The notes beneath the pieces are model-generated. The model worked only from the letters and a program-made list of their open reading frames with translations. It had not been told where the DNA came from and made no database searches. From Cyclobacteriaceae bacterium (GTDB lineage: Bacteria > Bacteroidota > Bacteroidia > Cytophagales > Cyclobacteriaceae): DNA of 64,000 bases. Positions 8,350 through 56,831 of the stretch are shown here, in pieces. The number at the start of each line of letters is the position of its first letter. Within the stretch, counting starts at the first letter, position 1. The position numbers and the translations under genes are program-made. The DNA is taken from contig JALHOT010000006.1 of the NCBI GenBank assembly GCA_022842845.1, positions 110,526-174,525 on the forward strand. The letters run 5' to 3'.

Positions 8350-8369
8350 ATGACATATCTCCAGTATAC

Positions 8370-10427: not shown

Positions 10428-10428
10428 C

Positions 10429-11190: not shown

Positions 11191-11247
11191 ACAGAAAATG
11201 TTAAATCACCGGCAAATATATTGGCAATCAAGCGTTTAAAAAAGTGC

Positions 11248-11469
11248 CTACAAAAAGTGCGTGCGCAAAGTTTCATAGGCAAGCTCCACCTCCAAATGAA
11301 CAGGCGCGTCATTAATGCTTTGGTAATTCAACTCGACAATACTCCTGCGGGTATTTTGCGGGTCAGGATAAATACGCCCTATGCAAGCCTTGTTGATAAG
11401 CTCAGTCTTAGATTCTTCATCCTGCAAGACAGGCAGTTCTATAAAATTGCTCATAATTTTTGTCTCCAT
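11248..11469 (-). CDS. Small hypothetical protein
   Basis: 73-aa ORF overlapping the arfB stop, same strand, protein-like composition. Confidence 0.55.
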   Translation of the reverse strand: METKIMSNFIELPVLQDEESKTELINKACIGRIYPDPQNTRRSIVELNYQSINDAPVHLEVELAYETLRTHFL

Positions 11470-11849
11470 TTTTTCTTCTCGCCTTGCAGCTTTTTCTCCG
11501 AAAACCTCTTTTCCTTAGAGGATTTAGTTGGTTTGGTCTTCTTTCTAACTTTTGGTTTAGTAAAAGCCTTCTTTAAAAGCTGATCCAACTTTAGCATGGC
11601 AGCTTCTTTGTTAGCCAGCTGTGATCTGTGTTCCTGAACACTAATTAGTAATTCTCCGTCTGTGGTGAGCTTGGAGGCTAATTTTATCAAAAGGGTTTCA
11701 CGCTCGCTTTCAGACAATAACGCAGATTGCTTTATATCAAAACGCAGGGTAACCTTACTATTGACCTTGTTCACATTTTGCCCTCCCGGACCGCTACTTC
11801 TGGAAGTCAGGAACTGCAACTCAGGCAAAAGCTTGGAGGCCGTTAACAT
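11451..11849 (-). CDS. arfB: Alternative ribosome rescue aminoacyl-tRNA hydrolase ArfB
   Basis: SRSSGPGGQNVNKVNSKV GGQ motif, SQLANK motif, basic C-terminal tail. Confidence 0.92.
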   Translation of the reverse strand: MLTASKLLPELQFLTSRSSGPGGQNVNKVNSKVTLRFDIKQSALLSESERETLLIKLASKLTTDGELLISVQEHRSQLANKEAAMLKLDQLLKKAFTKPKVRKKTKPTKSSKEKRFSEKKLQGEKKKWRQKL

Positions 11850-11861
11850 GATAGTTAAAAA

Positions 11862-13616
11862 TTACTTTTTAACGACCGTGAACTCTACACGTCTGTTGTT
11901 GGCGCGACCCGCTTCTGACTCGTTCGTATCGATGGGTTTTGTTTCGCCATAACCATGAGCCGTTAATCGGTAGCTATCTATGCCCTGACTAATAATATAG
12001 TCAACCACAGACTGCGATCGACCTTGCGAAAGATTGAGGTTGTAGTCATCTGAGCCCTTGCTATCGGTATGACCTGATATCTCAATCTCCACCGTCTTGT
12101 TTTGTTTTAGAAAGTCAACCACTTTATTCAACTCCGTGAAAGACTCACTCTTCAAACTTGTTTTATCAAAATCGAAGTAAATGTTTTTCAAGCGGACAGT
12201 AAGTCCTACTTCAATTGGTGCCAGAAATAAATCTTTAAACAAGGGGGTGTTGTCTTCTGAGTCCGACACTACACTATCGACAGCATTCAGGTAGCCCTCT
12301 GCTTTGGCGGTGATCATGTAAGTACCGAGGCCAGGGAGTTCTTGCTCATACTTACCACCTTGCGCATTCGTCTTCATTGCCGATCCTCTTTTGGTCAAAG
12401 CTTGAATCTCGACTGACGTAGTAATAGGTTGTTCTGTTTTTTTATCAAACGTAGTACCGGTTACCAATAACTTCTTAGCAATAGGCGTTAGGTAAATATC
12501 TATGGTAATAGTGGTGTCGTTACCTAAGGCCGGTAATGTAAAGCTTTGTTCATTGGGCAAAAAATTATCAGCTGAAGTAGACACAGTATACTTATTCACT
12601 TCGGGTATACGTGTTTCATACTTACCATCAGTCTTGGTCTTCAATTTCTGCGAGCTTTCACCAGCCTTCACTTCTACAGTTGCCACTATTGGGGCATTGG
12701 TCTTTTGATTATAAACAGTGCCGTTAACAATCACCTTTACATCGCGGGGTAACAGTTTAAATAAATCAAGGTTACCGCCATCGATGGTTGAATTAGCCCG
12801 GCTGGTAAACACATTGCCCTGCTTATCCATACAGAAGTAAAGTTCTTCAGCTGCTGTATTAATGGCAGGCCCCATATTAACCGGAGGCGACCATTTTTGC
12901 CAGCTATTGTCTAATCGCTTGGTTTTATAAATATCTAGTTTGCCCCGTTTGCCTGGGGCGTTGCGATCGCTGGCGAAATACAAGGTTTCATCATCGGCCC
13001 CAAGAAAGGGACCACAGTCGTCATCCTTTACAGAAATATTGAGCTTCACTGGTTTCGTCCATTTACCATCAGCTTGCTGATTGCTTACATACAAACTGCT
13101 GCGTGTACTGGTAGGTATTTCACTGAAAAAAAGAATGATATGCTTTGCATCTGAGGAGATCGATGCACCGTAAAAACGTCCCTTGTTCATTTCTTCAAAA
13201 CCAGGTATCTCAATTTCTGAAAGAGCTCCACCCGCACTAACTATTGAAAATCCTTTTGAATCCTTTCTGCGACCACCTTTAATAAATAAAGATCCATCGG
13301 GCATTGTAGTAAAAACCTGGTTGCTGCGGTGTGCGTTAAAAGGAGCTCCAAGGTGTTGTGCTACGCCCCATTCACCTTTGTCGTTGAGTGTACTCACCCA
13401 AATATCGTCACTGCCTTCTTTGCCGTAATTATTCTCCGGATGGTTGTGAACGAAGAAATAAAGTTTGTCTCCATCCTGTGAAAGTATGGGGGCCGCTTCG
13501 TGGTAATGCGTGTTTACTTCTTTACTAAGCTTTACCAGTTCATAGCGCGCAGAAAACTGCTGGGCTAAAATGCTGGTGCTGATCAGTGAAAAGATAAATA
13601 AAACAAATACTCTCAT
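11862..13616 (-). CDS. OmpA-family protein with PD40 beta-propeller and carboxypeptidase-regulatory-like repeats
   Basis: C-terminal OmpA domain (NIYFDFDK...EISGHTD...NLNLSQGRSQSV...NRRVEF); PD40 repeats (APILSQDGDKLYF). Start moved to MRVF at 13616, which gives a signal peptide. Confidence 0.85.
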   Translation of the reverse strand: MRVFVLFIFSLISTSILAQQFSARYELVKLSKEVNTHYHEAAPILSQDGDKLYFFVHNHPENNYGKEGSDDIWVSTLNDKGEWGVAQHLGAPFNAHRSNQVFTTMPDGSLFIKGGRRKDSKGFSIVSAGGALSEIEIPGFEEMNKGRFYGASISSDAKHIILFFSEIPTSTRSSLYVSNQQADGKWTKPVKLNISVKDDDCGPFLGADDETLYFASDRNAPGKRGKLDIYKTKRLDNSWQKWSPPVNMGPAINTAAEELYFCMDKQGNVFTSRANSTIDGGNLDLFKLLPRDVKVIVNGTVYNQKTNAPIVATVEVKAGESSQKLKTKTDGKYETRIPEVNKYTVSTSADNFLPNEQSFTLPALGNDTTITIDIYLTPIAKKLLVTGTTFDKKTEQPITTSVEIQALTKRGSAMKTNAQGGKYEQELPGLGTYMITAKAEGYLNAVDSVVSDSEDNTPLFKDLFLAPIEVGLTVRLKNIYFDFDKTSLKSESFTELNKVVDFLKQNKTVEIEISGHTDSKGSDDYNLNLSQGRSQSVVDYIISQGIDSYRLTAHGYGETKPIDTNESEAGRANNRRVEFTVVKK

Positions 13617-13709
13617 GCTTTTAGGTTTGGGGTAAAACAAAAGTAATCTGGTTTTCACCAGATTACCAGGCCATAGAATTATCAAAACCGTTTGAACAAC
13701 GGTGTATCA

Positions 13710-14177
13710 TTAAAAGAAAAAGAACACTGTTCTTCCGCTTTGAAGAATGGTAGCAATAATCACTACCAAGGCAATGGTATTGAAAATAGCCAATCGCTTG
13801 TGCTTAGCCAGGCTTTCTTTCATACGCTTCGAAGTAGTTCTGGCCAGGGTAATTAATACAACAGCTATCAGCATACCTATCAGGTGCTCAACTGCCCAAT
13901 AGCGCAGATCCGCTTGCTTCATGGTGTTTTCATTAAACTGCACGTTAGGGCTCACAAAATACAAAATCAAGCCCAGTAAAAACTGTATGTGCGTGGTTAT
14001 CAAAAGCCCTAAACTTAAGGCATTGTCCAGTTGGCTGAATGGCTTGTTTCTTAGAAAATCCATAAAGGATCTAACAATAACCACCACCAGGAGTACTAAA
14101 ACAAGATAACGGAGACCAGAATGACCATGGAAAAGTCCTGTATACATAAGCAAAGGATTAAAAATCGAAATTAGCAT
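13710..14177 (-). CDS. Four-TM membrane protein (cytochrome b-like hypothetical)
   Basis: HSGLRYLVL, THIQFLLGLILY and WAVEHLIGM motifs with conserved-looking His residues. Confidence 0.65.
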   Translation of the reverse strand: MLISIFNPLLMYTGLFHGHSGLRYLVLVLLVVVIVRSFMDFLRNKPFSQLDNALSLGLLITTHIQFLLGLILYFVSPNVQFNENTMKQADLRYWAVEHLIGMLIAVVLITLARTTSKRMKESLAKHKRLAIFNTIALVVIIATILQSGRTVFFFF

Positions 14178-14203
14178 AGCTTTTCGAGACTTCCGAAAAA
14201 TCT

Positions 14204-14211
14204 TACTTTTG
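14204..14211 (+). promoter_or_regulatory. Bacteroidota housekeeping -7 promoter element (TAnnTTTG)
   Basis: TACTTTTG 12 nt upstream of the ion-channel ATG. Confidence 0.55.
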
Positions 14212-14223
14212 TTTAACTGATTT

Positions 14224-15186
14224 ATGAAGCGTCTCTACCTCATTTTGCTGCTTTTGAGCGGCTTTTTATCTGCTCTGGCTCAAGATGAAGCTTCGACAGA
14301 GGCACCTGACACTGTTAAGGCTGGTGCTTATATCATCAATATCCACGATATCAATTTCAGGGATAAAGAGTATACCATTCGATTTTGGTTGTGGATGCTA
14401 TATGACAATCCTTCCTTTGATTTCTCCACGCAAATAGATATTCCTAACGCTAAGGATATCGAAAAACCAGAACCTTTGATGGACCTGGTGGATGGACAAA
14501 CATGGCAGCTCATGAAAATGAAGTGCACCATGAAGCAGAATTGGAAAGTAGATGACTTCCCCTTCGACAAACAACACCTTACGGTGCATGTAGAGAATAC
14601 GGTCTATGATAATAATGCCCTTGTCTATGTGCTTGACCACGATGGAAGCGCTTACGACCGAGAATTGACCATAGATGGATGGAACATCAGTAAATTCGAA
14701 ATAACTACCTCTACCAACGAATACACGACAGTGTTTGGTGATCCTTCTTCGGATGCACTGCATTCAGAATATGCATCCTTTAACATTAATATGGATATTG
14801 AACGCGATGCCTGGGGCCTTTTCGCCAAAATATTCATCGGTATGTACATCGCATTTCTTATATCTATCATCAGTTTTTCTCTTAGACCTTCAGAACTAGA
14901 GCCGCGCTTTGGCTTACCCGTGGGTGGATTGTTTGCAGCTGTGGGTAATAAATACATCATTGATTCATTATTACCCGAGTCTACTAGTTTCACGCTGGTT
15001 GACACCCTGCACACCGTTACTTTTTTAGGCATTCTGGCCACCTTACTGGTATCGGCTTTGTCATTAAAATACTTCGACAACGAGCAATTTGACAAAAGTG
15101 CTAAGGCCAACCGCCTTGGCTCTCGGCTTGTTATCGGCCTCTATGTGATTATTAACCTGGTTTTAGTAGGCTTGGCCATCTATTGA
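14224..15186 (+). CDS. Prokaryotic pentameric ligand-gated ion channel (Cys-loop/Pro-loop superfamily)
   Basis: Signal peptide, beta-sandwich ECD with the Pro-loop motif DFPFDKQ, pre-M1 Arg (ERDAW), four TM helices and M2-M3 loop LP. Confidence 0.8.
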   Translation: MKRLYLILLLLSGFLSALAQDEASTEAPDTVKAGAYIINIHDINFRDKEYTIRFWLWMLYDNPSFDFSTQIDIPNAKDIEKPEPLMDLVDGQTWQLMKMKCTMKQNWKVDDFPFDKQHLTVHVENTVYDNNALVYVLDHDGSAYDRELTIDGWNISKFEITTSTNEYTTVFGDPSSDALHSEYASFNINMDIERDAWGLFAKIFIGMYIAFLISIISFSLRPSELEPRFGLPVGGLFAAVGNKYIIDSLLPESTSFTLVDTLHTVTFLGILATLLVSALSLKYFDNEQFDKSAKANRLGSRLVIGLYVIINLVLVGLAIY

Positions 15187-15223
15187 TAGCCATGCAACCT
15201 AACATGCATTCGGTTGAAATGCC

Positions 15224-15231
15224 TATTTTTG
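15224..15231 (+). promoter_or_regulatory. Bacteroidota -7 promoter element
   Basis: TATTTTTG 19 nt upstream of the cystathionine beta-synthase ATG. Confidence 0.55.
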
Positions 15232-15250
15232 CAGCTGATATCATTAATCT

Positions 15251-16624
15251 ATGAAAATTTATAATTCTATCGTTGAAACCATTGGCAATACCCCTATGGT
15301 TAAATTGAATAAGCTTGGCAAAGATCTGCCCGGAACTTTTTTAGCAAAGGTGGAGTATTTCAATCCTGGCAATTCAACGAAAGATCGCATGGCCCTTAAA
15401 ATGGTTGAGGATGCCGAAAAAGCGGGCATTTTGAAACCAGGTGGTACAATCATTGAAGGAACTTCAGGCAATACAGGTATGGGCCTGGCGCTGGCGGCCG
15501 TTGCTAAAGGTTACAAGTGCATCTTTACCATGGCTGACAAACAATCGCAGGAGAAGATTAATATTCTTCGGGCTGTGGGTGCAGAAGTGGTAGTGTGCCC
15601 TACCAATGTGGAGCCGGATGACCCGCGTTCATATTATTCGGTGGCACGAAAACTAAACAAAGAGATTCCCAACTCTATCTATCCTAATCAATACGATAAT
15701 CCCTCCAATGCACAGGCGCATTATGAGACGACTGGTCCGGAAATCTGGGATCAAACTGATGGAAGCCTTACGCATTACATTGCCAGCGTAGGTACTGGCG
15801 GATCAATGTGCGGCACAGCTCGTTACTTAAAAGAGAAGAATAAGAATATTGTAACAGTAGGGATTGATACCTATGGTTCCGTTTTCAAGAAATATAAAGA
15901 GACCGGCATTTTCGATGAAAATGAAATTTATCCGTACCTCACAGAAGGTTTCGGTGAAGATATATTGCCTAAGAACGTCAACTTTGATTTAATAGATACC
16001 TTCATTAAAGTAACGGATAAGGATGGTGCCCTTATGACGCGCAGACTGGCCAAAGAGGAAGGCCTTTTTGTGGGCTGGTCTTGCGGCTCGGTAATGCATG
16101 GTGCGCTGGAATATGCTAAAGAGCATATGAAGAAAGGTGACATCTATGTGTTGTTATTACCAGATCATGGAACACGCTACCTGGCCAAGGTATACAACGA
16201 TCAGTGGATGCGTGACCATGGATTCCTCGATTCACGCAGCTTTGGCACTGCCCGCGACATTATCAATTCTCGCAATGGTAAAAACAGCTTGCATACTGTT
16301 AGCAAAACAACTAAGGTGAGCGATGCTATTTTATTGATGAGCAGAGAGGGTATCGATCAGATTCCTGTAACAGAAAACGGTCAGTTTGTAGGAAGCGTCA
16401 GCTCAGCTGCTCTGCTGGAAAAAATCATCAGTGATGCCAACCTGCAGCAAAAGCAAGTAGGCGAAGTATTGGAAAAGTCAATGCAATTTATTGCCCCAGA
16501 TAGCACGCTGGATGTTTTGTCTTCCTTGTTGAATAAAGAAACTAAAGCAGTGCTTGTTCGCGATGAGTCTCAAAACGTACACATCATTACGCAACACGAT
16601 GTTCTGAAAGCTATTGCACAATAG
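15251..16624 (+). CDS. Cystathionine beta-synthase (PLP-dependent) with C-terminal CBS domains
   Basis: KVEYFNPGNSTKDR PLP lysine, EGTSGNTG, GTGGS phosphate loop, C-terminal CBS pair. Confidence 0.9.
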   Translation: MKIYNSIVETIGNTPMVKLNKLGKDLPGTFLAKVEYFNPGNSTKDRMALKMVEDAEKAGILKPGGTIIEGTSGNTGMGLALAAVAKGYKCIFTMADKQSQEKINILRAVGAEVVVCPTNVEPDDPRSYYSVARKLNKEIPNSIYPNQYDNPSNAQAHYETTGPEIWDQTDGSLTHYIASVGTGGSMCGTARYLKEKNKNIVTVGIDTYGSVFKKYKETGIFDENEIYPYLTEGFGEDILPKNVNFDLIDTFIKVTDKDGALMTRRLAKEEGLFVGWSCGSVMHGALEYAKEHMKKGDIYVLLLPDHGTRYLAKVYNDQWMRDHGFLDSRSFGTARDIINSRNGKNSLHTVSKTTKVSDAILLMSREGIDQIPVTENGQFVGSVSSAALLEKIISDANLQQKQVGEVLEKSMQFIAPDSTLDVLSSLLNKETKAVLVRDESQNVHIITQHDVLKAIAQ

Positions 16625-21924: not shown

Positions 21925-22758
21925 CTAGCGTTTCCGGAAGATTTTAGCTTCTTCGTCCACGAGTTCAAACTTAGTATAGTTTATCCACGAAAGCATGGTG
22001 TCGTAAAAGCCAATAACGAAAAGCCCCCCTGGATTTAAAGCATCATAGAATTTATCGAGCAGTTTTACTTTAGCAGGATTATCGAAATAAATCATGACGT
22101 TTCGGCACAAAATCAAGTCATAAGTTGATTTAACGGGATCTGTAATAAGATTATGAAACTCATAGGTAGCATAGTTCTTTAACTCATCCACCATGGTAGC
22201 CTCAGCCCCTTCGGTAACATAATACTTCGTAAAATCGCTGTAAATATTGTACTGCTTAAAATTAGCCTCATTCTCGATCATTTTTATTTTATGGTACCGG
22301 CCATTTTTGGCTTCTTCCATAGCCTGCTTATTGATATCCGTGGCAAGTGCTTTCGTTTTATGTCTTAAGCCAATCTCTCCTAGTAATATAGCCATCGAAT
22401 AGACTTCTTCACCCGTAGAACACCCGGCATGCCAGATGGATAAACTCTCATGATTTTTAAAATCATCCTTTAACCTGTGTTTAAGGTGCTTCCAAAAAAT
22501 TGGGTCACGAAACATAGAGGTCATGCCTACGCTAACCTCATTCATAAAGACATGTATGAAAGAGCTATCCTTTAGTAATCTTACCCATAAGCCATGAATC
22601 GAGTCAAAATTGTAAAGATTGAGCAACCTAACGATCCGCCTTCTTAATGATTTAGGTTCATAACAAGTAAAATCTATACCGTATCGTGTTAAAATACTTT
22701 GGGCTAGTGATCTAACTTCTTCTTCTGATACATCCACTGATGTTGCATTCTTCTCCAT
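21925..22758 (-). CDS. cheR: Chemotaxis methyltransferase CheR
   Basis: IWHAGCSTGEEVYSMA, DLILCRNVMIYFD, LNPGG. Confidence 0.93.
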   Translation of the reverse strand: MEKNATSVDVSEEEVRSLAQSILTRYGIDFTCYEPKSLRRRIVRLLNLYNFDSIHGLWVRLLKDSSFIHVFMNEVSVGMTSMFRDPIFWKHLKHRLKDDFKNHESLSIWHAGCSTGEEVYSMAILLGEIGLRHKTKALATDINKQAMEEAKNGRYHKIKMIENEANFKQYNIYSDFTKYYVTEGAEATMVDELKNYATYEFHNLITDPVKSTYDLILCRNVMIYFDNPAKVKLLDKFYDALNPGGLFVIGFYDTMLSWINYTKFELVDEEAKIFRKR

Positions 22759-22768: not shown

Positions 22769-25624
22769 TTAAACTACTGCCATAACTGGTACTCGATCTT
22801 CAACTACCCTAATCAGTACAAAGACCAACCTTGCTATATTTCCCTCTAAATTTCTTATAACCGTTAAGGATGATTCGAAAGTAGCAGCCTTCCCCTTATA
22901 GCTAAAAGGAATAAGAACAGTGGAATGATCTTGTTTTAAAACCTCATCTTTCATGTTAGCAAACACGTCATGATAATATTCTTCTACAAAATCATTAAAT
23001 ACTTTACCCCTCAGCTCAGTACGGGATAAAGCAAAAAACTTCATAAACTTATCATTGGCTGTTTTACAACTGAAGTCTTCGTTGAATTCAATAATAGGAA
23101 GTGTTGCCTTTAAAGATCCCACCAATGAAGAAAGATCATTAATCTTTTCTTTTTCTTGTGTGGTGAATTGAGCAAACATCATAATCTTCTCTGGCACTTC
23201 AGTATCTACAATAATGGGATTGAAAGTACCTGTCAACCATAATTCTCTGCCTTCTTTATTTTTAAGCCTGAATTCGCCTGAGAAAAACTTACCCAGTCTT
23301 AAATTATCCCACATCATGTGTACAGTGGGCTCATCTTGCATTATATCAAGGTAATTAGCGCCTTGTAACTCTTCACCTTTAAAGCCCATTACAGCCATAA
23401 AGATGTCGTTGCCTCTGATAAACTTACCTTCGACATTAAATTCTGCTGAGGCAATTGTGTTGTTAATAGCCGATAGATAACTGGTTAACTCTAATTGTTT
23501 TCGCTCAGCCTGCTTCTCTAATTCTTTCTGCTTGGTAACATCCACACCAAACTCAATTATTTTAATGAGATCACCTTTTAAGTCAACAACCGGGTAATCC
23601 ATGAGCTTCAGGCAATGAACGTTACCCAATTTATCAAAACGTTTAAATTCACCACTTTGCAATCCATTTACTTCAATCTCATGGAGCAACTTTGTGAATA
23701 TATGTTCCTTCCTAGATACGATACTGTATGACCTGCCTATTAAATCATTGATTTCATAACCAAGTAAATGAGCATAATTATCATTGACCTCAATGATATT
23801 ACCTTCCAAATCCAACTCCATGATGGCATTGGATTTACTCAGGGCTTTCATCTTTTGGTGAAAATCCAAAGCCCGCATTTTGGTATCTGTAATATCAGCT
23901 TGTATAGAAATATACTTTACCACATCACCTTCCTCATTGGTGACAGGGTTGATAGCTAGCGAAACCCAATAAGTTTCACCCTGTTTATTATAGTTTAATA
24001 TCTCTTCAAAAACAGGTTTCTTCTCGGCAATGATATGTCTCAACTTTCTAACAGTGTCTTTATCAGTAAGCGGACCTTGCAATAAATGACCAGGTTTTTT
24101 GCCTATAATCTCGTGCGGCTCGTAACCAGTCATTTTGGTAAAACCTTCATTGACATACTCTGTTAATCCGTTGGCATCAGTAATAATAACCGAATTATCA
24201 GTATTGTTTGCCACCAGCGAAAGTCTTTCAAATTCAATTTCCTTGCTCTTCTTACCTGTTATATCCTGAATCATGCAGAGCACCTTCTCAACTTCTTGCT
24301 GCGCATTGATCATTGGTGTAAATGTGATGCTTAACCAGACAGATTCGCCCTGTTTATCGTATGTCTCAAAATCTCCTGACTTAATTTTACCACTCACGAA
24401 TTCCTGCCATGCCATTAACTGCTTTCTCATCAGCAGAGAGTAATCCTTATTCAATAAGTCTGCCACTTCACATTTTAAAAAAGAAGCTAACAGGGGATTA
24501 GCTTTGATGAGCTTGCCTGATAATGAAAACTCAGCAGTGGCCAAGGTAGAATCAATTGCATTAATGATGCCTGATAGCTCAGTTTGTTTGCGAGCCATTT
24601 CCTCTTGAGTGGCGGCAAGCTCCTCAAGATTCTGTTTCATCTCCTCTTCTCTTGTCTGGAGCTCTGCTGTGAGTGATTTAGATTCATTCAATAAAGACTG
24701 TGTGCGTTGATATCCTTTCATGGAAGCCATTTCGGAAGCAATATTTTCTACAACCCGCTTCAGAAACTCCACTTGATGTGGCTTCATTACTTCAAAAAGT
24801 GCCAATTCAATAGCTCCGTAGAATTGCTCATTGAATATCAAAGGAGCCACTACAATATTTCTGGGGGTGGCCTCTCCTAAACCAGAGGTAATTTTTACGT
24901 AGCTGGAAGGAACATCCGTAATAAAGACAAAGTCCTTTTCAAGCATGCATTGACCCAAAATACCCTCCCCCTCATTAACCCTTCTTTCGATAAACTTTTT
25001 CCTATCATAAGCATAACAGGCTATCATTTCTAAATATCGACCGCTTTGCAGATCGGATTCTTCAAGAAATAAAGCTGCTTGGTTAGCCCCAAGATATTTA
25101 ACAAGCTGGCTTACAATTTTCTGACTGTATTGTCCTAATTCAGTTTTATCACGTAAAATTTCGCTAAAGCGAGCCAAGCCATCATTCACCCAGTTACGCT
25201 TGCTTTCTTCTTCCTTCAATTGTTGCAACTGCCCTCTTACTGCACTCAAAGCCTCGCCAATAGCGTCATCTTTTAGCAGATCATCCATTTTACCCTGGGT
25301 ATCGGAAGAATCAATTTGCTTAATGTACTGAGCCGTTAAATTTAATTTTCTCTCAATCAGTTTTTGATTCTCCTGTAGATGATCAAAAGATTGTAGTGTT
25401 AGAACACCACCCTTTGCTTTGTTTTTACCAAGTAATGCGTTCGTTTCATTAAGTAAATATTGCCCGAGCTTTGAAATCAGGTTGAGCATCCACACCAAGG
25501 AAATAAAAGCTCCCAATGTACCCACTAGTATCAAGCTGAAGTGCTGATGAAAAAAAGCCAGTATAGCGGTTAGTCCTATAAAAGAGACCAGTAATGAAAC
25601 GGCAAGCTGAATTTTAAGCTTCAT
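22769..25624 (-). CDS. Membrane-anchored HAMP-like/GAF/coiled-coil/multi-PAS protein without an output domain
   Basis: Two N-terminal TMs, GAF (ACYAYDRKKF...GILGQC), coiled coil EEEMKQNLEELAATQEEM, about five PAS domains; no kinase, MA or cyclase motifs seen. Confidence 0.8.
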   Translation of the reverse strand: MKLKIQLAVSLLVSFIGLTAILAFFHQHFSLILVGTLGAFISLVWMLNLISKLGQYLLNETNALLGKNKAKGGVLTLQSFDHLQENQKLIERKLNLTAQYIKQIDSSDTQGKMDDLLKDDAIGEALSAVRGQLQQLKEEESKRNWVNDGLARFSEILRDKTELGQYSQKIVSQLVKYLGANQAALFLEESDLQSGRYLEMIACYAYDRKKFIERRVNEGEGILGQCMLEKDFVFITDVPSSYVKITSGLGEATPRNIVVAPLIFNEQFYGAIELALFEVMKPHQVEFLKRVVENIASEMASMKGYQRTQSLLNESKSLTAELQTREEEMKQNLEELAATQEEMARKQTELSGIINAIDSTLATAEFSLSGKLIKANPLLASFLKCEVADLLNKDYSLLMRKQLMAWQEFVSGKIKSGDFETYDKQGESVWLSITFTPMINAQQEVEKVLCMIQDITGKKSKEIEFERLSLVANNTDNSVIITDANGLTEYVNEGFTKMTGYEPHEIIGKKPGHLLQGPLTDKDTVRKLRHIIAEKKPVFEEILNYNKQGETYWVSLAINPVTNEEGDVVKYISIQADITDTKMRALDFHQKMKALSKSNAIMELDLEGNIIEVNDNYAHLLGYEINDLIGRSYSIVSRKEHIFTKLLHEIEVNGLQSGEFKRFDKLGNVHCLKLMDYPVVDLKGDLIKIIEFGVDVTKQKELEKQAERKQLELTSYLSAINNTIASAEFNVEGKFIRGNDIFMAVMGFKGEELQGANYLDIMQDEPTVHMMWDNLRLGKFFSGEFRLKNKEGRELWLTGTFNPIIVDTEVPEKIMMFAQFTTQEKEKINDLSSLVGSLKATLPIIEFNEDFSCKTANDKFMKFFALSRTELRGKVFNDFVEEYYHDVFANMKDEVLKQDHSTVLIPFSYKGKAATFESSLTVIRNLEGNIARLVFVLIRVVEDRVPVMAVV

Positions 25625-25628: not shown

Positions 25629-26234
25629 CTAGCTGGCTAGATGAATTCTACCTTCAGGTACTGACTCAAATATCTTAGAGCTGAGTTTCCATAAAAACTG
25701 AGGATGAACCCTTTCACTCACATTAAACTGAAACGTAGTATTAGAAAGTATCATGGCAGAACGATCCATCCCTTCTACTTCTCTTTCCATAAAATTTTCC
25801 AATTCCTCTGCCTTCATTCTTTTCAACATGGGAACATCGCCATACACTTCTAATTTCAGATTATTCGAAAGTTCTGAAATAACAGATGCTGAAATAATGT
25901 TATCAATTTCCATCAGTAAAGCATCGTTCAACTGGTGGCTGACAAAACCAAAGGTTTGGGAAGTTATCTTAACAATTTCTGACGTTTCGTCAGCGTTAAG
26001 AATCAGATACGATTTACCCGAAAGGTCACCAATTAATTTAGTCACCAACACAATAATTTCTCCATCCTCGTCAGAAATACAAGAGAAGTCGTTAGCATGC
26101 CTTACCAATACCGATTGTGTATTGGTAATTTTCACAGACTTACCAATGAAGGAAGAAAAGGCATCAGAAGCACGCTGAAAGCCCTGATTCATAATGTGGA
26201 TAATAAATTTTTCACGCTCTCTGTTATGATCCAT
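25629..26234 (-). CDS. cheC: CheC-family CheY-P phosphatase
   Basis: Second-half motif E-I-D-N-x22-P is intact; CheC-like spacing of helices and strands; che operon context. Confidence 0.82.
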   Translation of the reverse strand: MDHNREREKFIIHIMNQGFQRASDAFSSFIGKSVKITNTQSVLVRHANDFSCISDEDGEIIVLVTKLIGDLSGKSYLILNADETSEIVKITSQTFGFVSHQLNDALLMEIDNIISASVISELSNNLKLEVYGDVPMLKRMKAEELENFMEREVEGMDRSAMILSNTTFQFNVSERVHPQFLWKLSSKIFESVPEGRIHLAS

Positions 26235-26245: not shown

Positions 26246-28036
26246 TTAGTTAAGAGAAAAGTTTTTAGATGCTCTGCCATGTGAAGACAGACTGAAAATA
26301 AAATGGAGAATGAAGGGCACATTCAACACCAAACAAACATTGCCGCTGCCAAGAATTGTAACGCCACCAATAAACTTGATTTTATCAACAGGTTTCATCA
26401 ATGGTTTTTCAACAATTTCCTTTTGTTGCAACAGTTTATCCACTACAAAACCTACCGTTCTGTTGTTAAAGCTTACGACTACTATATCTAATTTTTCTTC
26501 AGGATGAACCAGATCATGTGTCTTTTGTAAAGCATTATTAGATTGGCCTATCACTGTTGGATCATAGTCAAAAACGTCCTTAAGAAAAACGATAGAAATA
26601 TTTTTACCCAAATGAGAAGCTACTAAACCTCCACCTGCCTTGTGTATATCAGATCGATATAAAGAAATGACTGATTCTGTATAAGCAAGGGGTATAGCAT
26701 AAACCTCATCTTTCAATTCGAACAGTAGACAAGATTTAACAGCCATTGATGAAGGGAGCGTAAGCTGAATAGTGGTTCCGACACCTGGCTCACTTATTAC
26801 TTTAATCTCTCCGCCTATGGTATCAAGTGTTTTGCGTACCACATCCATGCCAACACCTCGACCTGCAATAGCTGTTACCTGGTCCATGGTGGAAAAGCCA
26901 GGCTCGAAAATCAACAGGCTTAACTCGTCAGTAGTCATGCGTGATACGTCTTCTTCCGTTACCAACCCTTTGGCAATAGCTTTTGACTTTATCCTATCAT
27001 AGTTCAAACCTTTACCATCGTCTTTGATTTCGATGATCACCGCATCAGTTTCTCCGCGAGCTGTTAACCAAACGGTTCCTTCTTTGGGTTTACTTGCAGC
27101 CAAACGTTCTTCAGGGCTCTCGATACCATGCCCCACAGAGTTGCGCACAATATGAATCAATGAGTCACTGATCACTTGCAACACATTCCTGTCAATTTCC
27201 GTGTCGGTGCCTTCAAGTTTCAATACCACGTTCTTCTTTTCAATAGTGGCAGCATCACGTACCACTCTATGAAACTTATTAAATAAAAATCCTACCTGCA
27301 CTAAACGAACATCCATTACTGAATACTGAAGGTCAGAACTTATCCTGCTTAACCGGGCATATTCGTTAGAACCCTGCAAACCACTGGCCGCGCGAGAAGC
27401 CAATATTCTATCCTTTTCAATAATCAGCTCTCCCACAAGATTTAGCAGATTATCAAGCTTTCTGACAGGCACTTGTACCAGATCAGAAAAGGAAAGCTTA
27501 TTATCCGATTCGTCCGGAGATTCAGACTCTTCTTCATCAGAAGGCTGATTGCCAACCCCAATGGCCTCCGGTACGAATGGACTTTGAACAGAAGTCTCCA
27601 GCCCCACCGGATTCTCCTGTTTTTCTTCAATTACTTCTTTTACTTTATCCTCATTAGCACGTTTTACAATAACTTCAAGCTTGGTTTTGATGCCTTTGTA
27701 CTTTACTTCCTTACCATCTCTCACAGAATTTACCAAAGCCCCTAATGTATCAGCTGCTTTAAATAATGATCCAAACAAAGACTCGTCTAGTATAATTTTT
27801 CCCTCTCTTACTTCACCAAACAAATCTTCCAGAACGTGGGCCATTTCTGCTATGCCGGTATACCCCATGCCTGCGGCATTGCCTTTTAGGGTATGCGTTA
27901 TGCGAAAAAGTGCATGCACAGTATTTTTATCGCTGCGACTTTTTTCCAGTACAGTAAGAAGTCTGTTAATTTCTTCAAAGTTCTCGAGCGCTTCTGCTAA
28001 AAAGATCTCTTTATATTCTTCTTCCTTGTTGCTCAT
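26246..28036 (-). CDS. cheA: Chemotaxis histidine kinase CheA (no P2 domain)
   Basis: HPt HTLKGNAAGMG, dimerisation LDNLLNLVGELII, N box RNSVGHG, G1 DDGKG, G2 GRGVGMDVV, C-terminal CheW-like domain. Start set to MSNKEEEY (28036), just after the cheB stop. Confidence 0.95.
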   Translation of the reverse strand: MSNKEEEYKEIFLAEALENFEEINRLLTVLEKSRSDKNTVHALFRITHTLKGNAAGMGYTGIAEMAHVLEDLFGEVREGKIILDESLFGSLFKAADTLGALVNSVRDGKEVKYKGIKTKLEVIVKRANEDKVKEVIEEKQENPVGLETSVQSPFVPEAIGVGNQPSDEEESESPDESDNKLSFSDLVQVPVRKLDNLLNLVGELIIEKDRILASRAASGLQGSNEYARLSRISSDLQYSVMDVRLVQVGFLFNKFHRVVRDAATIEKKNVVLKLEGTDTEIDRNVLQVISDSLIHIVRNSVGHGIESPEERLAASKPKEGTVWLTARGETDAVIIEIKDDGKGLNYDRIKSKAIAKGLVTEEDVSRMTTDELSLLIFEPGFSTMDQVTAIAGRGVGMDVVRKTLDTIGGEIKVISEPGVGTTIQLTLPSSMAVKSCLLFELKDEVYAIPLAYTESVISLYRSDIHKAGGGLVASHLGKNISIVFLKDVFDYDPTVIGQSNNALQKTHDLVHPEEKLDIVVVSFNNRTVGFVVDKLLQQKEIVEKPLMKPVDKIKFIGGVTILGSGNVCLVLNVPFILHFIFSLSSHGRASKNFSLN

Positions 28037-28046
28037 ACGCCTGCAT

Positions 28047-29087
28047 TTATAAACAGCTGACAATAAAACCTGATATTTGTGCGAGGGGGACAATTTGCTT
28101 TACAGCTCCATATTCAAAAGCAGCTTTAGGCATACCATACACAACCGATGAGTCCTCATCCTGCGCAATAGTGTATCCTCCCATATTTTTAATCTTGGCC
28201 ATGCCTAACATTCCATCCTTACCCATTCCGGTAAGTATGACACCTATGCTCCTGCTTCCATAGGTGTCGGCAACAGAGTCAAAAAGGCAATCGATTGAGG
28301 GATAATTAAACTCTTCAAATTTTTTATTGGTATAGGTAATCATTGGTTGCCCGGTGATCATATTTTTTTCGATGCAGGTATTTGACTCCCCGTTGGCTAC
28401 ATAAATATTTCCGCCCTTGAGGGTTTCACCTCTTCTACCCAGTTTTACAGGTAAGGGACTATTTTCATTTAACCTTTCTGAAAATGTTTCTAAAAACCGT
28501 GGGGGCATGTGCTGTGCTATGACCACTGGAATTTGAAGATTTCGAGGTAGGTTATTGATAATTAACTCTACCGCACCGGGTCCACCAGTTGAGGCACCAA
28601 TAACGATGATATCGTAATTAAGTGTTTGGGTGAAAGTATGGGTGTGTGTATTTTTATTTGACTGCTGGCGGTTTTTCAGCAGGTTAGTATCCGTAAGCGA
28701 AGCTTCACGAATAAGTTTTAATAGAGGATAATTAAATGCATTTCGGCTATCTGCATCGGTTGGTTTGTCAATAAACTCGAAAGCACCATACTGCAGGGCA
28801 TCAAAAATGCGTGAATTGGTTTTGTTCAATGAACTTAAGACGATGATAGGTGTGGGCCGCTTATCCATAACCGCCTTCACCAGGTACATACCATCATACT
28901 CAGGCATCACCATGTCAGTAATAACCACATCAGGCTTTAACTCCAAAGCCATATCGCTCCCTACCCTGCCGTCTTTCGCTGTACCAACTATTTCAATTGA
29001 AGCATCTGCACTAATCAGATCCGTAATTAACTTACGCATCAGGGCAGAGTCATCAACAACAAGGGTACGAATGCGCTCGGCAGACAT
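28047..29087 (-). CDS. cheB: Chemotaxis methylesterase CheB (REC + esterase)
   Basis: REC TDMVMP; catalytic GASTGG (Ser), QHMP (His), LTGMGKDG (Asp). Confidence 0.95.
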   Translation of the reverse strand: MSAERIRTLVVDDSALMRKLITDLISADASIEIVGTAKDGRVGSDMALELKPDVVITDMVMPEYDGMYLVKAVMDKRPTPIIVLSSLNKTNSRIFDALQYGAFEFIDKPTDADSRNAFNYPLLKLIREASLTDTNLLKNRQQSNKNTHTHTFTQTLNYDIIVIGASTGGPGAVELIINNLPRNLQIPVVIAQHMPPRFLETFSERLNENSPLPVKLGRRGETLKGGNIYVANGESNTCIEKNMITGQPMITYTNKKFEEFNYPSIDCLFDSVADTYGSRSIGVILTGMGKDGMLGMAKIKNMGGYTIAQDEDSSVVYGMPKAAFEYGAVKQIVPLAQISGFIVSCL

Positions 29088-29099: not shown

Positions 29100-29456
29100 T
29101 TAAGCGTTAGTAACTGCTTGAACTAATTGTTCATTGGTGAATGGTTTCACTATATAAGCGCGTGCACCCAGTCGAAGTCCTTCATTTACAACAGATTCTT
29201 GACCAACAGCACTAATCATAACCACTTTTGATTTAAGACCTTCTTCCTGATACACCTTCAAAATATCTGTCCCGATCATATCAGGAAGAATATTATCCAG
29301 TGTGATCAAATCAGGCTGCAGTTCAAAAGCCAAATCGATAGCTTCTTCTCCATTAGCAGCCTGACCAACAACGCTGTACCCATTACCCTCCAGCGCATCT
29401 TTAATTAAGGTGCGCATGTAAAGAGAATCATCTACTATTAGAACACTCTTAGCCAT
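29100..29456 (-). CDS. cheY: Single-domain response regulator CheY
   Basis: IVDDS, LDNILP (phospho-Asp), MISAVGQ, IVKPF; Bacillus/Thermotoga/archaeal-type CheY features. Confidence 0.9.
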   Translation of the reverse strand: MAKSVLIVDDSLYMRTLIKDALEGNGYSVVGQAANGEEAIDLAFELQPDLITLDNILPDMIGTDILKVYQEEGLKSKVVMISAVGQESVVNEGLRLGARAYIVKPFTNEQLVQAVTNA

Positions 29457-29471: not shown

Positions 29472-29909
29472 TTAATAAATTTTATATTCATTACTTTGTG
29501 AAAAACGAACTGTCATTGTTCCGGTCTTGGCATCAAACTTTGCAGATCGACTTTGTATTCCTCCAACATCTTGTGCAGCGATATAAATTCTTTGTTGAAT
29601 GAGCTGCTCAAGTACTGAGCTTGCATTTTGGGCACCTACTTCATAGCCTGTAGCGATAACATTTGCACCCCCCACCACTTTGGCTCTCAAATTAAGCAGG
29701 TCGCTGCCCAAAGCCTTAAACTGTTTTAGTAGTTCTGCAACAACGGTTGGTACATGTTGTGGAAGCAATATGTGAGCTCCTCCAGAAATACCAGTTTGGC
29801 GATCTTGGAGAAATAAACCAATACAAGAACCAAGCCCCAAACAATTGTATGTTGTTTCTTCATGGTTACTAACTACCAACTCATCAATATTTAATTTATA
29901 CTCCGTCAT
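29472..29909 (-). CDS. cheD: Chemoreceptor glutamine deamidase CheD
   Basis: GLGSCIG (catalytic Cys), GAHILLP (His), AKVVGGA, DVGG..SR motifs. Confidence 0.88.
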   Translation of the reverse strand: MTEYKLNIDELVVSNHEETTYNCLGLGSCIGLFLQDRQTGISGGAHILLPQHVPTVVAELLKQFKALGSDLLNLRAKVVGGANVIATGYEVGAQNASSVLEQLIQQRIYIAAQDVGGIQSRSAKFDAKTGTMTVRFSQSNEYKIY

Positions 29910-30418
29910 GCTGCAGTTGCCTTCTTCAAGTTTGTCGTTAACTCCTGATCTACCACTTTAAAGATGTCAATCAGAATAATTAAGCGCTCACCGGTTTTGA
30001 TAATGCCTTTGATATAATTTACCTCAGCATTAGCATCTGCGATGATACCCACTGACTCATCAAGGTCATTGGCATTGACTGAAATTGTATTGGGTACTTC
30101 ATTGACCAGAAGGCCCATCTTTAAATCCTCGCTTTCTACCACAAGCGTATAGCGCTTGCCTGAAAGTTGCGTTTCAGTTCTTTGCAAGTTGAATCGTTCT
30201 TCTAAATCAAAAATGGCAATTACATTTCCTCTAATATTGGCCACACCCTTCACATAATGCGGTGTTTGTGGCATTTTCGTAATATTAGGCGTAATGACTA
30301 CCTCTTTAATCTGATCGATTCTTAATCCATATTCTTCCTGACCCAATTTAAAAACTACAATCTGCAGTGTTCTTTGGGTATTGTTTTCAGTTTGTTTTGA
30401 TGCAGTTACTTCGGCCAT
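29906..30418 (-). CDS. cheW: Chemotaxis adaptor CheW
   Basis: VVFKLGQEEYGL, PHYVKGVANIRGNVI. Confidence 0.95.
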   Translation of the reverse strand: MAEVTASKQTENNTQRTLQIVVFKLGQEEYGLRIDQIKEVVITPNITKMPQTPHYVKGVANIRGNVIAIFDLEERFNLQRTETQLSGKRYTLVVESEDLKMGLLVNEVPNTISVNANDLDESVGIIADANAEVNYIKGIIKTGERLIILIDIFKVVDQELTTNLKKATAA

Positions 30419-30498: not shown

Positions 30499-33099
30499 TT
30501 ACTTTCTTAGTTTAAACTGTTGAATTCCTGCTTGTAGTTCGGCAGCTACCGCAGATAGTTCATCACCCGCTTTAGCTATTTCCAACATACCAGAACTCAT
30601 CTGCTGGCTTGAGCTTGCCACTTGCTGTGTACCGGCAGCTGTCTCTTCAGATACCACTACGATCTGTTCTATGTTCTTCACAACAGTAGAGATAGCTTCC
30701 TTCTGTGTGCTGGTGGCTGATTGAATCTCTTTAGAAGAAGAGAAGGTTTCTTCACTCGTTTTGGCTATTTCCTGGAATATAACCTCAGCTTCAACGCTTG
30801 ACTTATTACCTTCCTTCACGCTGCTTTCCATGATTTCGATTGCCTTACCAGCAGCCTGTGTATCTTTCTGCACATCACCGATAATCTTCTCAATCTCTAC
30901 AGCAGATCTTCTGGAATCTTCTGCCAATTTTCTAATCTCTTCAGCCACCACTGCAAATCCACGGCCTGCATCTCCGGCTCTCGCTGCTTCAATGGCTGCA
31001 TTCAAAGCCAGTAAATTAGTTTGGCTGGCAATGTCAGTTATTACGTTCAGGGTACGGCCGATCTCCTCGGTACGTTTAGTGAGTACACTGATTGATTGTG
31101 AAGTCTGTCCGGCTGAATCCTTTATACCATTCATGTTGTTAACAAGTACTTTTACAGTTCTCATACCCTGGTTAGAACTTTCTAATCCTTTCTCAGCCGC
31201 TTTGTTAATCAGATTAGCCTTTTTCTCCATGTCATTTGAAGAACTCATCACATGGTTAATCAATTTAGAAGACTCATCAGTGCGAGAAGCCTGATCTTGC
31301 GCTCCTTTTGCCATTTGAGAAATGGCTGTAGCTACTTCGGCAGTATTACGCTTCATGTCATCTGTCTTTTTCTGCAAGAGATCAGAAGATTTAGCCACTA
31401 CATCTGAACCCTGGCTGATTTGCCCTAACACTGAGTTTAGATTATCAAGTGTTCTATTTACCTCGGCAGTCAAACCTCCATTATCAACTGCAGTGTTACA
31501 ACGTAGACTTAAGTCACCTTTCGACATGGCCTTGATGACGCGAATTACTTCAGTCATGTCCAATGCATACTTCACAACCTTATAGGGTTTGCCATCAGCA
31601 TCTTTGATAGGATTATAAGAGGCCTGAATATAAATCTCATCACCACTCTTCGTAATGCGCGTATAGGTTCCTACAAAATACTCACCACGGTTCAACGTAT
31701 CCCAGAAACTTCTGTATTCGGAACTCCGCGCATATTCAGGATCAACAAACATGCGATGGTGTTTACCTTTTAGTTCATTAATAGTATAACCAAGGGTCTT
31801 TAAGAAGTTATCGTTGGCATCAATGATCGTTCCGTCCATATTGAAGGAGATAACCGCGTTTGACATACCAATGGCTGCCAGTTGTCCTTCATAATCAATA
31901 TTTTTAAGTTTTTGTGCGGTGATGTCGTTCGCAAGCTTTATAACTTTTATGACATTGCCTTTATCATCTTTCATGGGCGTATAATTCGCCTGAAGCCAGA
32001 TGTCATTTCCATCCTTTGTCTTACGCTTAAACTCACCTGTTTGAGGATGACCATTTCTTAGGTTTACCCAAAGTTGTTGATATGCCTGGGAGCTCACGTA
32101 TGCAGGATCGCAAAAAATACGGTGATGTTTACCTTGAATCTCATCAAGGGTATACTTCATCGTATTTAAAAAAAGATCATTTGCCTTAATAACATTTCCA
32201 TCAGGTGTAAATTCGATATAGGCGTTAACAGCATTGATGGCACTCATGGTACCTTCTAATTCTTGCTGTTTCACCACTTGCTCTGTGATAACATAGCGTA
32301 CACCAATGTACTTGATCGGTTTACCATTAGGTCCCAAAACAGGAGCAATCAAAGCATCCACCCAATAAGCTGATCCATCTTTACATCTGTTCTTGATAAT
32401 GCCTCTGAATATCTTACCCTTTCCAATAGTAGCCCACAACTCCTTGAACACACTCTTAGGCATATCAGGATGACGGAACATGCTATGCGGTTGGCCGATA
32501 CACTCCTCGCGAGTATACTGCGATACCTCACACAATAAATCGTTAACATAAGTAATGTCTCCTTTTAGGTCGGCTTCAGAAACCACACATGCCACATTAA
32601 TCTGATCCATGCGGGTTTTTAGCTCTCGCTGCAAATCTTCAAGTTCCAAAGTGGACTTCTTTTGAACTGTAACATCCTTTACGTATAAAGTGCTTTGCAC
32701 TCTATCACCCGCAACAGCCTTTGTCACAGAAACTGCACACCAGAAACTATCTGATACACCACGCTTAACTTGCAATTCAACTTCTTCTCCACTCGATAAG
32801 GCTTGAATTTTAATTACTTGCTCTGGTGCAAATAAGGCAGATAAAGAATTACCAATTATCTGATTCTTATCTACTGCAAAAAGTGTAGCAGCCGATTTAT
32901 TAATGCTCAATAGCTGACCACCCTGATCAAACGTAATAATACCATCTACTGCCTGATCGTAAGCATCCACCTGTGCTTTCAATAAGTTTTCAATCTCGGT
33001 TAAGCGTTTACGAATCTCAGTAGAAGACTCTGACTTTGCAGCAGGGGCACTTCCTCCAGTACCACCATTTTCCTTATCCTGATAATAATTTGGTTTCAT
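30499..33099 (-). CDS. Soluble multi-PAS methyl-accepting chemotaxis protein, 44-heptad class
   Basis: No TM; four PAS domains, one with RHPDMP; hairpin tip [34 protein letters not shown]; manual count gives about 22 heptads per arm. Confidence 0.93.
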
Positions 33100-33303: not shown

Positions 33304-33828
33304 TTAGTTAAGACAAGTATGGTGAAAATCGAAATCGCTCACAGTGGGATATTTGATGACTGTAAGTTGCCTTGTTTGCCAGGTGTAGGGTCTTTGAGAA
33401 AATTGAATAAGCTCATTACCTTCTTTAATTAGCTTCTGTATTACAGGCCCCAAACTATCAGCCACCTCACCTTGTTGCTCAGCTCTTTCCAGCATCTCTT
33501 TGCGCACCATCGCATTTGTGTTAGTCCAACGCTCACCCTTCATGATTTTATAAAAAAGTGTTCTGGATGCTTGCGTAGATTTGCAAAAGCTTACAACAGC
33601 AGCATCATCGGCAAATGACCGAATTGCTTGTAGGAGTAATTGAGAAGACTTACCAACAGTTATGATTAATAAATGATGTTGATGGCTCATCATCATTACT
33701 TCATGATAATATGTACTCAAACCACCGAGATAAGCCAATACCTGCGTTTCATTGAAATTAGCCTTATGTCGAAGTTGATGAGGTATCAAATTCAGGTCAA
33801 TTTCTGCCGATGTAATAATAGCCTCCAT
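33304..33828 (-). CDS. Hypothetical protein, first gene of the che operon
   Basis: 174-aa ORF on the same strand, downstream of a terminator and a regulatory motif; no recognisable motif. Confidence 0.7.
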   Translation of the reverse strand: MEAIITSAEIDLNLIPHQLRHKANFNETQVLAYLGGLSTYYHEVMMMSHQHHLLIITVGKSSQLLLQAIRSFADDAAVVSFCKSTQASRTLFYKIMKGERWTNTNAMVRKEMLERAEQQGEVADSLGPVIQKLIKEGNELIQFSQRPYTWQTRQLTVIKYPTVSDFDFHHTCLN

Positions 33829-55079: not shown

Positions 55080-55173
55080 TTATCGCATATGCTCGGTTTT
55101 GCAGCGTCACATTTATTCATTGAAACTAATTAAAAAAAGCAATGATGCATAGCAGTTGACTTGCATTAACAAG

Positions 55174-55518
55174 CTATTTATTGAAGGTCTTAACAAATTC
55201 CCTCTCCCTTCTTTTCTCTTCAATGCGGGGTTTAATCAAGTATCTTGCAATAGCGAATATAACTTCATCTCTTTGGAGTATAATTTTTAAAGAGGGCTCG
55301 AGATATTCCTTCATGAATTCAAAGAAGTACTCTTGATCGCTTTTACCTTTTTCTACCTTCAAAAGAGATTCCTTGAAATACTGTTCCCACTTAGGTGAAA
55401 CATGAAAAGTCTTTATTAGGTATTCGAAATAGATCGGAATGTCTGTTACTTCAAAAAGTTGAAGATCTTCCGGTATGATACTTAGGCGTTTCATCCTGGT
55501 CACTAAATTCCTTCCCAT
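55174..55518 (-). CDS. Hypothetical protein
   Basis: 114-aa ORF on the same strand as the nuclease. Confidence 0.6.
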   Translation of the reverse strand: MGRNLVTRMKRLSIIPEDLQLFEVTDIPIYFEYLIKTFHVSPKWEQYFKESLLKVEKGKSDQEYFFEFMKEYLEPSLKIILQRDEVIFAIARYLIKPRIEEKRREREFVKTFNK

Positions 55519-56813: not shown

Positions 56814-56831
56814 AAAATAGCAATAATATTT

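Follow-up and report, generated by a model that had tools for sequence, protein, structure and literature searches.

An output-less GAF-PAS membrane receptor encoded in a Cyclobacteriaceae che operon carries a conserved acidic coiled coil with candidate methyl-accepting sites

To our knowledge, reversible glutamate methylation by CheR and CheB has been described essentially only for methyl-accepting chemotaxis proteins (MCPs), in which the MA domain controls CheA. The two enzymes are known to act on the antiparallel four-helix bundle of MCPs, and the classical MCP methylation consensus reads Glu-Glu-x-x-Ala-Ser/Thr. Cyanobacterial phototaxis MCPs of the PixJ/TaxD1 type end in a normal MA domain and have bilin-binding GAF domains. 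CheC presents CheD with a mimic of a receptor helix, and a C-terminal pentapeptide tethers CheR. Here, we analyzed a 64,000-nucleotide (nt) stretch of DNA from a Cyclobacteriaceae bacterium (GenBank assembly GCA_022842845.1, contig JALHOT010000006.1, positions 110,526 to 174,525 of the forward strand; the whole stretch is called the window below, and coordinates count from its first letter). The gene of interest (22769..25624, minus strand) lies in a che operon and encodes an output-less receptor of 951 amino acids (aa). The receptor is a member of a very large unnamed family of chemoreceptor-like sensors. From sequence comparison we propose, with about even confidence, that it would be a second, membrane-bound receptor of the Che pathway, whose coiled coil would serve as a methyl-accepting module for CheR/CheB, perhaps also CheD, and which would signal by contact to the MCP/CheA array.

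The architecture of the receptor was established from a list of open reading frames (ORFs) and the translation, by Pfam and NCBIfam scans, and with an AlphaFold2 model of residues 1–590, built as a monomer from 68 homologues (mean predicted local distance difference test score, pLDDT, 84.8). The hydrophobic N terminus (residues 1–50, 25475..25624; this and all other parts of the receptor are on the minus strand) contains two transmembrane helices arranged as a membrane hairpin. In the model, helices 2–24 and 29–64 are connected by a 4-residue loop, leaving no periplasmic sensor domain. A HAMP-like helix-connector-helix follows (residues 51–120, 25265..25474), with one helix ending at residue 64, a 12-residue connector at 65–76, and a second helix at 77–103; Pfam HAMP (PF00672) is below significance in the receptor but significant in its homologues. 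Residues 121–298 (24731..25264) comprise a pre-GAF helix (EEESKRNW..GLARFSEILR), modelled as a long helix spanning 121–158, and a GAF domain recognized by Pfam GAF_2/GAF at residues 165–297 (GAF_2, E = 1.7e-10 at 167–297) and by conservation among homologues. The GAF domain is modelled as an alpha/beta fold with pLDDT >90, and its SGLGEA..P core is invariant across the 68 homologues. A single uninterrupted helix, 282–360, links GAF to PAS in the model. It holds the acidic heptad coiled-coil motif LTAELQTREEEMKQNLEELAATQEEMARKQTE (residues 318–349, 24578..24673), recognized by column entropy, motif counts, and the model. Five PAS domains occupy residues 350–945 (22790..24577), with approximate limits 350–460, 466–584, 598–709, 713–830, and 831–945. 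TIGR00229 marks five PAS stretches (E = 4.5e-56) and Pfam PAS_9 marks four, while two PAS folds are present in the modelled part. The C terminus of the receptor is PAS region. No MCPsignal, HisKA/HATPase, GGDEF, or other output domain was detected by Pfam or NCBIfam at E ≤ 0.01. A preliminary description of the gene had listed two transmembrane segments with almost no periplasmic loop, a HAMP-like segment, a GAF domain, about five PAS domains, and no MA hairpin, kinase, or cyclase; the analysis bears out each of these points.

Several other identities were considered and set aside. The receptor is not an MCP, as it has no MA domain (PF00015) with the hairpin tip for CheW/CheA, and because of this it has no known means of binding these proteins. 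A histidine kinase, diguanylate cyclase, or other enzymatic sensor was rejected since Pfam and NCBIfam find no catalytic output domain in it. A truncated kinase or pseudogene was ruled out as well: the ORF is intact, measures 951–969 aa in several genomes, and the relatives examined have no output domain. The C-terminal pentapeptide for CheR is absent from the receptor, which ends in ...EDRVPVMAVV. A PDB sequence search with the N-terminal 470 aa gave no match at E ≤ 0.01, and Foldseek matched the model only to generic tandem PAS, LOV, and phytochrome structures. The second PAS domain (PAS2) is 34–42% identical to LOV domains in the Foldseek matches (42% to the CagFbFP structure). Its residues 508–517 (24074–24103) read GKKPGHLLQG where LOV domains have GxNCRFLQG, so that, in our own alignment, Gly occupies the position of the adduct Cys; its YtvA_fam score, 108 bits, is under the cutoff of 250. 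In the absence of the flavin-adduct cysteine, PAS2 was ruled out as a LOV blue-light photoreceptor. It may be a flavin or redox PAS domain.

Homologues of the receptor are 38–57% identical to it, with E values down to 1e-121. When residues 121–352 were used as a query in a phmmer search against 1.84 billion cluster representatives, 3,777 clusters (at 50% identity) were recovered at E ≤ 1e-30 and 8,169 at E ≤ 1e-10; almost all matches bearing an organism name are from Bacteroidota. Members share three hallmarks, all present in the receptor: the pre-GAF helix (EE.KRNW..GLA.F.EILR), a GAF domain with SGLGEA..P, and the coiled coil (..EEEM+QN.EEL.ATQEEM.RK). The common plan consists of a membrane anchor or MCP-type ligand-binding domain, HAMP, GAF, and the acidic coiled coil, with or without PAS domains. 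GAF was found in 67/67 and PAS in 53/67 diverse representatives; MCPsignal, kinase, cyclase, and receiver domains are missing from the 25 Pfam families listed for the 67, and no catalytic output domain appears in the Pfam annotations precomputed for the 240 homologues listed. The N termini of relatives carry PilJ, 4HB_MCP_1, dCache_1, dCache_3, CHASE3, or HAMP; PilJ, 4HB_MCP, dCache, and CHASE3 are ligand-binding modules typical of MCPs. The family resembles MCPs such as E. coli Tsr/Tar in its N-terminal sensor modules and transmembrane-HAMP entry, in heptad-spaced acidic pairs with a Glu-Glu-x-x-Ala-Thr site, in the location of genes beside cheR and cheB, and in having many paralogues, many of them orphan genes. 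It differs in the GAF domain after HAMP and in the position of the candidate sites, which lie on one continuous helix and not in an antiparallel four-helix bundle. PixJ/TaxD1-type MCPs share the transmembrane-HAMP-GAF sensory layout within che-like operons; unlike theirs, the GAF domain of the receptor gives no indication of bilin binding. S-helix (signalling-helix) GAF/PAS proteins and DosP/MmoS have a comparable long GAF-PAS helix, and the receptor's nearest structural matches are tandem PAS and LOV domains; these proteins, in contrast, have enzymatic outputs and linkers with no conserved EE ladder.

Many family proteins hold two to nine tandem GAF-coiled-coil modules. Among five repeat-bearing members (P0309, P0319, P0324, P0345, and P0377), some have GAF-coiled-coil arrays in which 4 to 9 copies of the motif follow one another, usually at intervals of about 165 aa, and in others the motif alone is repeated five or six times with a period of 63–70 aa. 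A search of a protein database with a short-motif profile returned only fragments of 34–84 aa, which carry no information on architecture; one of them (P0141) led to a GAF gene outside any che context. Some family genes are orphans, like many MCP genes. GAF-coiled-coil proteins at three loci (L018, L019, and L022) have no che gene in the available flanks. At one further locus, a receptor lies beside a divergently transcribed gene for a CheB-CheR-PAS-HisKA fusion protein. Within the literature searched, we found no description of GAF-coiled-coil receptors, their motif, or this type of operon, and none of CheR/CheB action outside MCPs in Bacteroidota.

The composition of the family bears on whether the receptor might be a passive scaffold whose only task is to hold a soluble MCP/CheA/CheW array at the membrane, with no sensing of its own. 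Such a role would fit the soluble MCP of the operon, the membrane hairpin with no periplasmic domain, and the PAS subtype that the receptor shares with the MCP. On the other hand, the GAF and the five PAS domains have stayed intact throughout the family and conserve residues of their pocket loops, and relatives bear true ligand-binding domains (dCache, PilJ, 4HB, and CHASE3). We therefore regard a purely structural role as very improbable.

The preliminary description had quoted the peptide ELQTREEEMKQNLEELAATQEEMARKQ from the segment after GAF, and we located it at residues 321–347 (24584..24664), in the middle of helix 282–360. Its glutamate pairs, at positions 327/328, 334/335, and 341/342, are spaced by 7 residues, and EELAAT of the central heptad matches Glu-Glu-x-x-Ala-Ser/Thr exactly, in line with the early remark that EE/QE pairs resemble methylation sites. 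E334-E335-L-A-A-T339 (24608..24625) is the best candidate for a methyl-accepting site. In the alignment of 68 homologues, residues 319–348 have the lowest mean column entropy of all segments (1.38 bits, compared with 1.47 bits for GAF and 1.85–2.38 bits for PAS), and Q340 and E349 are invariant. The consensus of 242 family coiled coils, SQQxTE[EQ]MRAQEEEMRQNMEELxATQEEMxRK, contains four acidic pairs exactly seven residues apart. If the conserved hydrophobic residues are set as heptad position "d" (our own register assignment), the pairs occupy solvent-exposed b/c positions; several "a" positions are then polar, which suggests a weakly packed coiled coil. A central [EQ][EQ]xxA[ST] occurs in 189/242 of the coiled coils; outside this segment, these proteins show the pattern at a background frequency of 0.00024 per residue. 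Given this enrichment and the top conservation of the segment, we conclude that the motif is not a chance feature. Gln replaces Glu in 36% of the 242 sequences at the first pair and in 10% at the fourth.

In the window, the operon is transcribed from the minus strand in the order MCP-cheW-cheD-cheY-cheB-cheA-CheC-like gene-receptor-cheR. The CheC-like gene (25629..26234, minus strand, 201 aa) ends 4 nt before the receptor start, and cheR (21925..22758, minus strand, 277 aa; Pfam CheR and CheR_N) starts 10 nt past the receptor stop, in agreement with the earlier placement of the gene between cheC and cheR. A scan of GTDB genomes for the receptor yielded 20 related loci, the closest from a Cytophagales metagenome-assembled genome (MAG; 85% identity) and Chryseotalea sanaruensis (67%). 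The operon order, receptor included, is kept in about 15 Cytophagales genomes, among them Chryseotalea, Chryseolinea, Ohtaekwangia, and Fulvivirga. Cultured bacteria with the operon include Chryseotalea sanaruensis Ys (contig NZ_BHXQ01000004.1) and Chryseolinea serpens DSM 24574 (NZ_FQWQ01000005.1). Far from usually lacking the receptor gene, orthologous operons contained it at every GTDB locus with enough flank. The receptor adjoins cheR in all orthologous operons recovered, which upholds the functional link to the che pathway assumed in the preliminary description; cheR comes before the receptor in Agaribacillus and in one Cyclobacteriaceae genome. In Bacteroidales, a more remote homologue, 43% identical over the N-terminal half, is the first gene of a che cluster with another gene order. 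In two relatives, a Cyclobacteriaceae MAG (L013:2848) and Fulvivirga (L014:2840), the operon MCP itself carries a EEELRQNMEEMTATQEEM motif near residue 186; this copy is situated between N-terminal PAS domains, far from the methylation helices of the MA domain.

The remaining genes of the operon, all on the minus strand, were identified by Pfam as cheA (26246..28093), cheB with a REC domain (28047..29087), cheY (29100..29456), cheD (29472..29909), cheW (29906..30418), and a soluble MCP of 866 aa with four PAS domains and a canonical MA domain (30499..33099; MCPsignal E = 1.3e-40). The second methylation helix of this MCP has canonical sites that are conserved, with QQ/QE interchange, in 16 orthologues. 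No Pfam match was obtained for the 201-aa CheC-like protein. It matches NCBIfam CheC_Thtogales with E = 2.4e-8 (34 bits vs a cutoff of 250) and PDB CheC structures 1XKR/2F9Z with E = 0.004 over 130 residues. Of the E-x2-N sites in this protein, the first is degenerate (HIMN) and the second intact (EIDN).

We then looked at motif genes in metagenomes. A scan for QN[ML]EE[LM]xAT gave at least 600 matches; in the best 80 loci, che genes were sought by tblastn with the Che proteins of the window. Nowhere in these 80 loci was cheA, cheW, or an MA domain detected, and cheR and/or cheB was present in 14. In 9/69 motif genes (those with at least 1.2 kb of downstream sequence), cheR follows within 600 nt on the same strand. 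The co-occurrence of the family with cheR, proposed earlier as a check, is thus seen at the level of loci: motif genes occur directly before cheR, usually together with cheB, and no cheA, cheW, or MCP gene is nearby. Five loci (L024, L039, L059, L064, and L071) contain a cassette in the order receptor, cheR, REC-less cheB, a small transmembrane GAF protein, and a GAF-PAS-PAS-SpoIIE (PP2C) phosphatase. These cassettes have no cheA, cheW, or MCP gene within about 10 kb, and no cheD or cheC. The sensor domains of their receptors differ (PilJ in L064, dCache_3 in L071). In L064 (cassette at 7986–16253, with a CZB protein in front and DUF6272 at the end), EEMQAT in the receptor coiled coil is the only match to [EQ][EQ]xx[ASTG][ASTG] in the seven operon proteins. 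The SpoIIE protein of the same locus has the same GAF type and GAF-to-PAS linker and no EE motif; hence the motif is not simply a requirement for joining GAF to PAS. In view of these loci, the idea that the receptor may be a methylation substrate gains independent comparative support. The cassettes resemble RsbU/SpoIIE partner switching in that they are cheA-less and end in GAF-PAS-PAS-SpoIIE, and a Bacteroidales che cluster with a family member (L021) includes a STAS protein; the operon in the window differs in having no PP2C gene. We know of no partner-switching pathway with CheR and CheB, and none was found in the literature searched.

The mechanism that we infer is as follows. The GAF and PAS domains would sense signals, which would be passed along the long GAF-to-PAS helix. 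The adjacent CheR would act on the solvent-exposed Glu-Glu ladder centred on E334-E335 in EELAAT, and CheB, possibly with CheD, would act on the same ladder. By neutralizing charge, methylation would adjust how stable the weakly packed coiled coil is, which is also its effect on the methylation helices of MCPs. The state of the receptor would reach the soluble PAS-rich MCP/CheW/CheA array by protein contact, plausibly through PAS-PAS or coiled-coil pairing. The preliminary description, which saw the receptor as a non-canonical substrate or scaffold, had supposed that it couples the che pathway to another output; nothing that points to such coupling was found.

A number of observations weigh against this mechanism. 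Real sites typically alternate between E and Q, but the two central pairs are about 98% Glu and rarely do so. When aligned by hhalign, EEMKQNLEELAATQEEMA and the first methylation helix of the operon MCP match with E = 0.33, which is not significant, and for this reason we claim no homology between the motif and an MCP methylation helix. Because helix 282–360 is continuous in the model, the receptor would be expected to form a parallel two-helix coiled coil in a dimer, a geometry other than that of the known CheR and CheB substrates. The canonical, conserved sites of the operon MCP mean that CheR, CheB, and CheD already have an orthodox substrate. The motif is also found in the N-terminal PAS region of some cognate MCPs (two lineages) and as tandem arrays, and these MCP-internal and tandem copies could equally well belong to a generic docking or dimerization module. 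About 85% of the motif genes in the metagenome sample are not beside cheR. Finally, the evidence from the cassettes is at the level of loci, and MCPs may be encoded elsewhere in the same genomes.

Much of this would be expected if the receptor were an accessory sensor that is never methylated, with the coiled coil acting as a signalling helix or as a docking surface common to the family, one that plays the part of the MCP hairpin tip for CheA/CheW; cheR would then be adjacent only since CheR serves the MCP. A canonical MCP with canonical sites is encoded in the same operon, one long helix between GAF and PAS holds the motif, its central pairs are nearly fixed as Glu, Q340 and E349 are invariant, and the polar "a" positions of the core are as in dynamic signalling helices. 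The majority of motif genes are orphan, the motif sits between PAS domains in some MCPs, and in receptor families the strongest conservation often falls on the surface that binds a partner. However, an unmethylated sensor leaves cheR and cheB with no visible substrate in the five cassettes that lack MCP, cheA, and cheW, where the motif is the sole consensus match. Moreover, the SpoIIE relatives join the same type of GAF to PAS with no EE motif, and direct adjacency to cheR in 9/69 cases is far above expectation for a gene unrelated to CheR. We consider this explanation, the main alternative, unlikely, though one to be taken seriously.

The resemblance to CheC raises another explanation, that the EE motif is a decoy or tether. 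It would bind CheR, CheB, or CheD as a substrate mimic that is not turned over, and would keep these enzymes near the array. The Thermotoga maritima CheC-CheD complex (PDB 2F9Z) is an established case in which a protein other than an MCP imitates a methylation site. Like CheC, the receptor is a non-MCP protein of a che operon with a methylation-consensus-like helix, and cheD and the CheC-like gene belong to the same operon. Tandem motif arrays would also suit multivalent binding. The two proteins differ in kind: CheC is a small soluble phosphatase, and the receptor is a membrane sensor of 951 aa whose motif forms a ladder over several heptads and is conserved in thousands of receptors. In the MCP-less cassettes, tethered enzymes would have nothing to act on, and cheD and cheC are not there; binding itself would have to be assumed from sequence resemblance. 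A decoy or tether therefore seems improbable to us.

If instead the coiled coil is a real substrate of CheR and CheB, the adaptation module would be transferable to receptors with other ways of signalling, be it a PP2C cassette or contact with a soluble MCP. On a broader and more tentative view, in which we have somewhat less than even confidence, GAF-coiled-coil receptors would constitute a second class of methyl-accepting receptors, independent of the MA domain. In Bacteroidota, CheR and CheB would then act away from CheA/CheW arrays, with a parallel acidic coiled coil as substrate, and would tune PP2C partner-switching cassettes and, in operons like that of the window, a Che co-receptor. 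Thousands of proteins annotated only as PAS/GAF would become adaptation-competent receptors with a shared downstream partner. This would provide a function for a very large set of output-less sensors, mainly of Bacteroidota and comprising thousands of clusters, and a handle on Che-type pathways in Cytophagales, a group known as gliding rather than flagellated. Even without methylation, the near-invariant coiled coil points to a common partner of the family.

A second conserved element was noticed in receptors with C-terminal tails of about 95 aa (L024, L028, L030, L040, L044, L048, and L052), which share the pattern [DE]DW.[VLI]AEE....[LI]...L[ED]A[LM]+IT. Six of these seven adjoin cheR; downstream DNA of L052 is too short to tell. 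The acidic-Trp start of the tail element recalls pentapeptide tethers, yet it is not at the extreme C terminus and has no Phe.

The Bacteroidales che cluster mentioned above (L021:10001–21986) begins with a 661-aa receptor homologue; next come a helical protein of 594 aa, for which Pfam gives no match, a STAS protein, cheY, cheA, cheW, cheR, a small HisKA-HATPase gene, cheD, cheB, and a second cheR and cheB. No MCP or MCPsignal domain is recognizable in the 22 kb of this locus. The possibility that the 594-aa protein is a divergent MCP received no support from Pfam, hhalign, or a PDB sequence search. It contains LQYHDIIWQ, which resembles the D-x3-Q of CheZ.

Within the operon, CheY is by far the most conserved protein. 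It is 99–100% identical in the closest relatives and 73–93% identical in the more distant Cytophagales-type operons recovered, which suggests a strongly constrained target. The longest cheA ORF, with a TTG start at 28093, overlaps cheB by 47 nt (28047–28093); the true start is probably further downstream, because most relatives align only from about residue 16–23. Upstream of the operon lies a strong terminator-like hairpin (34012–33982). Between it and the MCP gene there is a 174-aa ORF (33304–33828, minus strand) with no Pfam match; it is found at the same place in relatives, where it is 58% identical in Chryseotalea and about 30% identical in others.

Elsewhere in the window, a minus-strand gene at 37497–45530 encodes a 2,677-aa sensor kinase in which very many PAS domains are combined with a single GAF domain and a kinase of the HisKA_2/HWE type. 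Directly downstream of it are genes for a REC-PAS-HisKA_3 kinase, a LuxR-type response regulator, and a HisKA kinase, three genes that are conserved neighbours of the che operon in relatives. A region of low GC content (53679–63510, 0.32–0.36) contains defence-type genes for an Mrr-like endonuclease, McrBC (an AAA_5 ATPase and McrC), and a KAP-family P-loop NTPase. A 320-aa ORF (14224–15186, plus strand) matches PF02931, the ligand-binding domain of neurotransmitter-gated ion channels, weakly (E = 6e-7) and may encode a prokaryotic pentameric ligand-gated channel.

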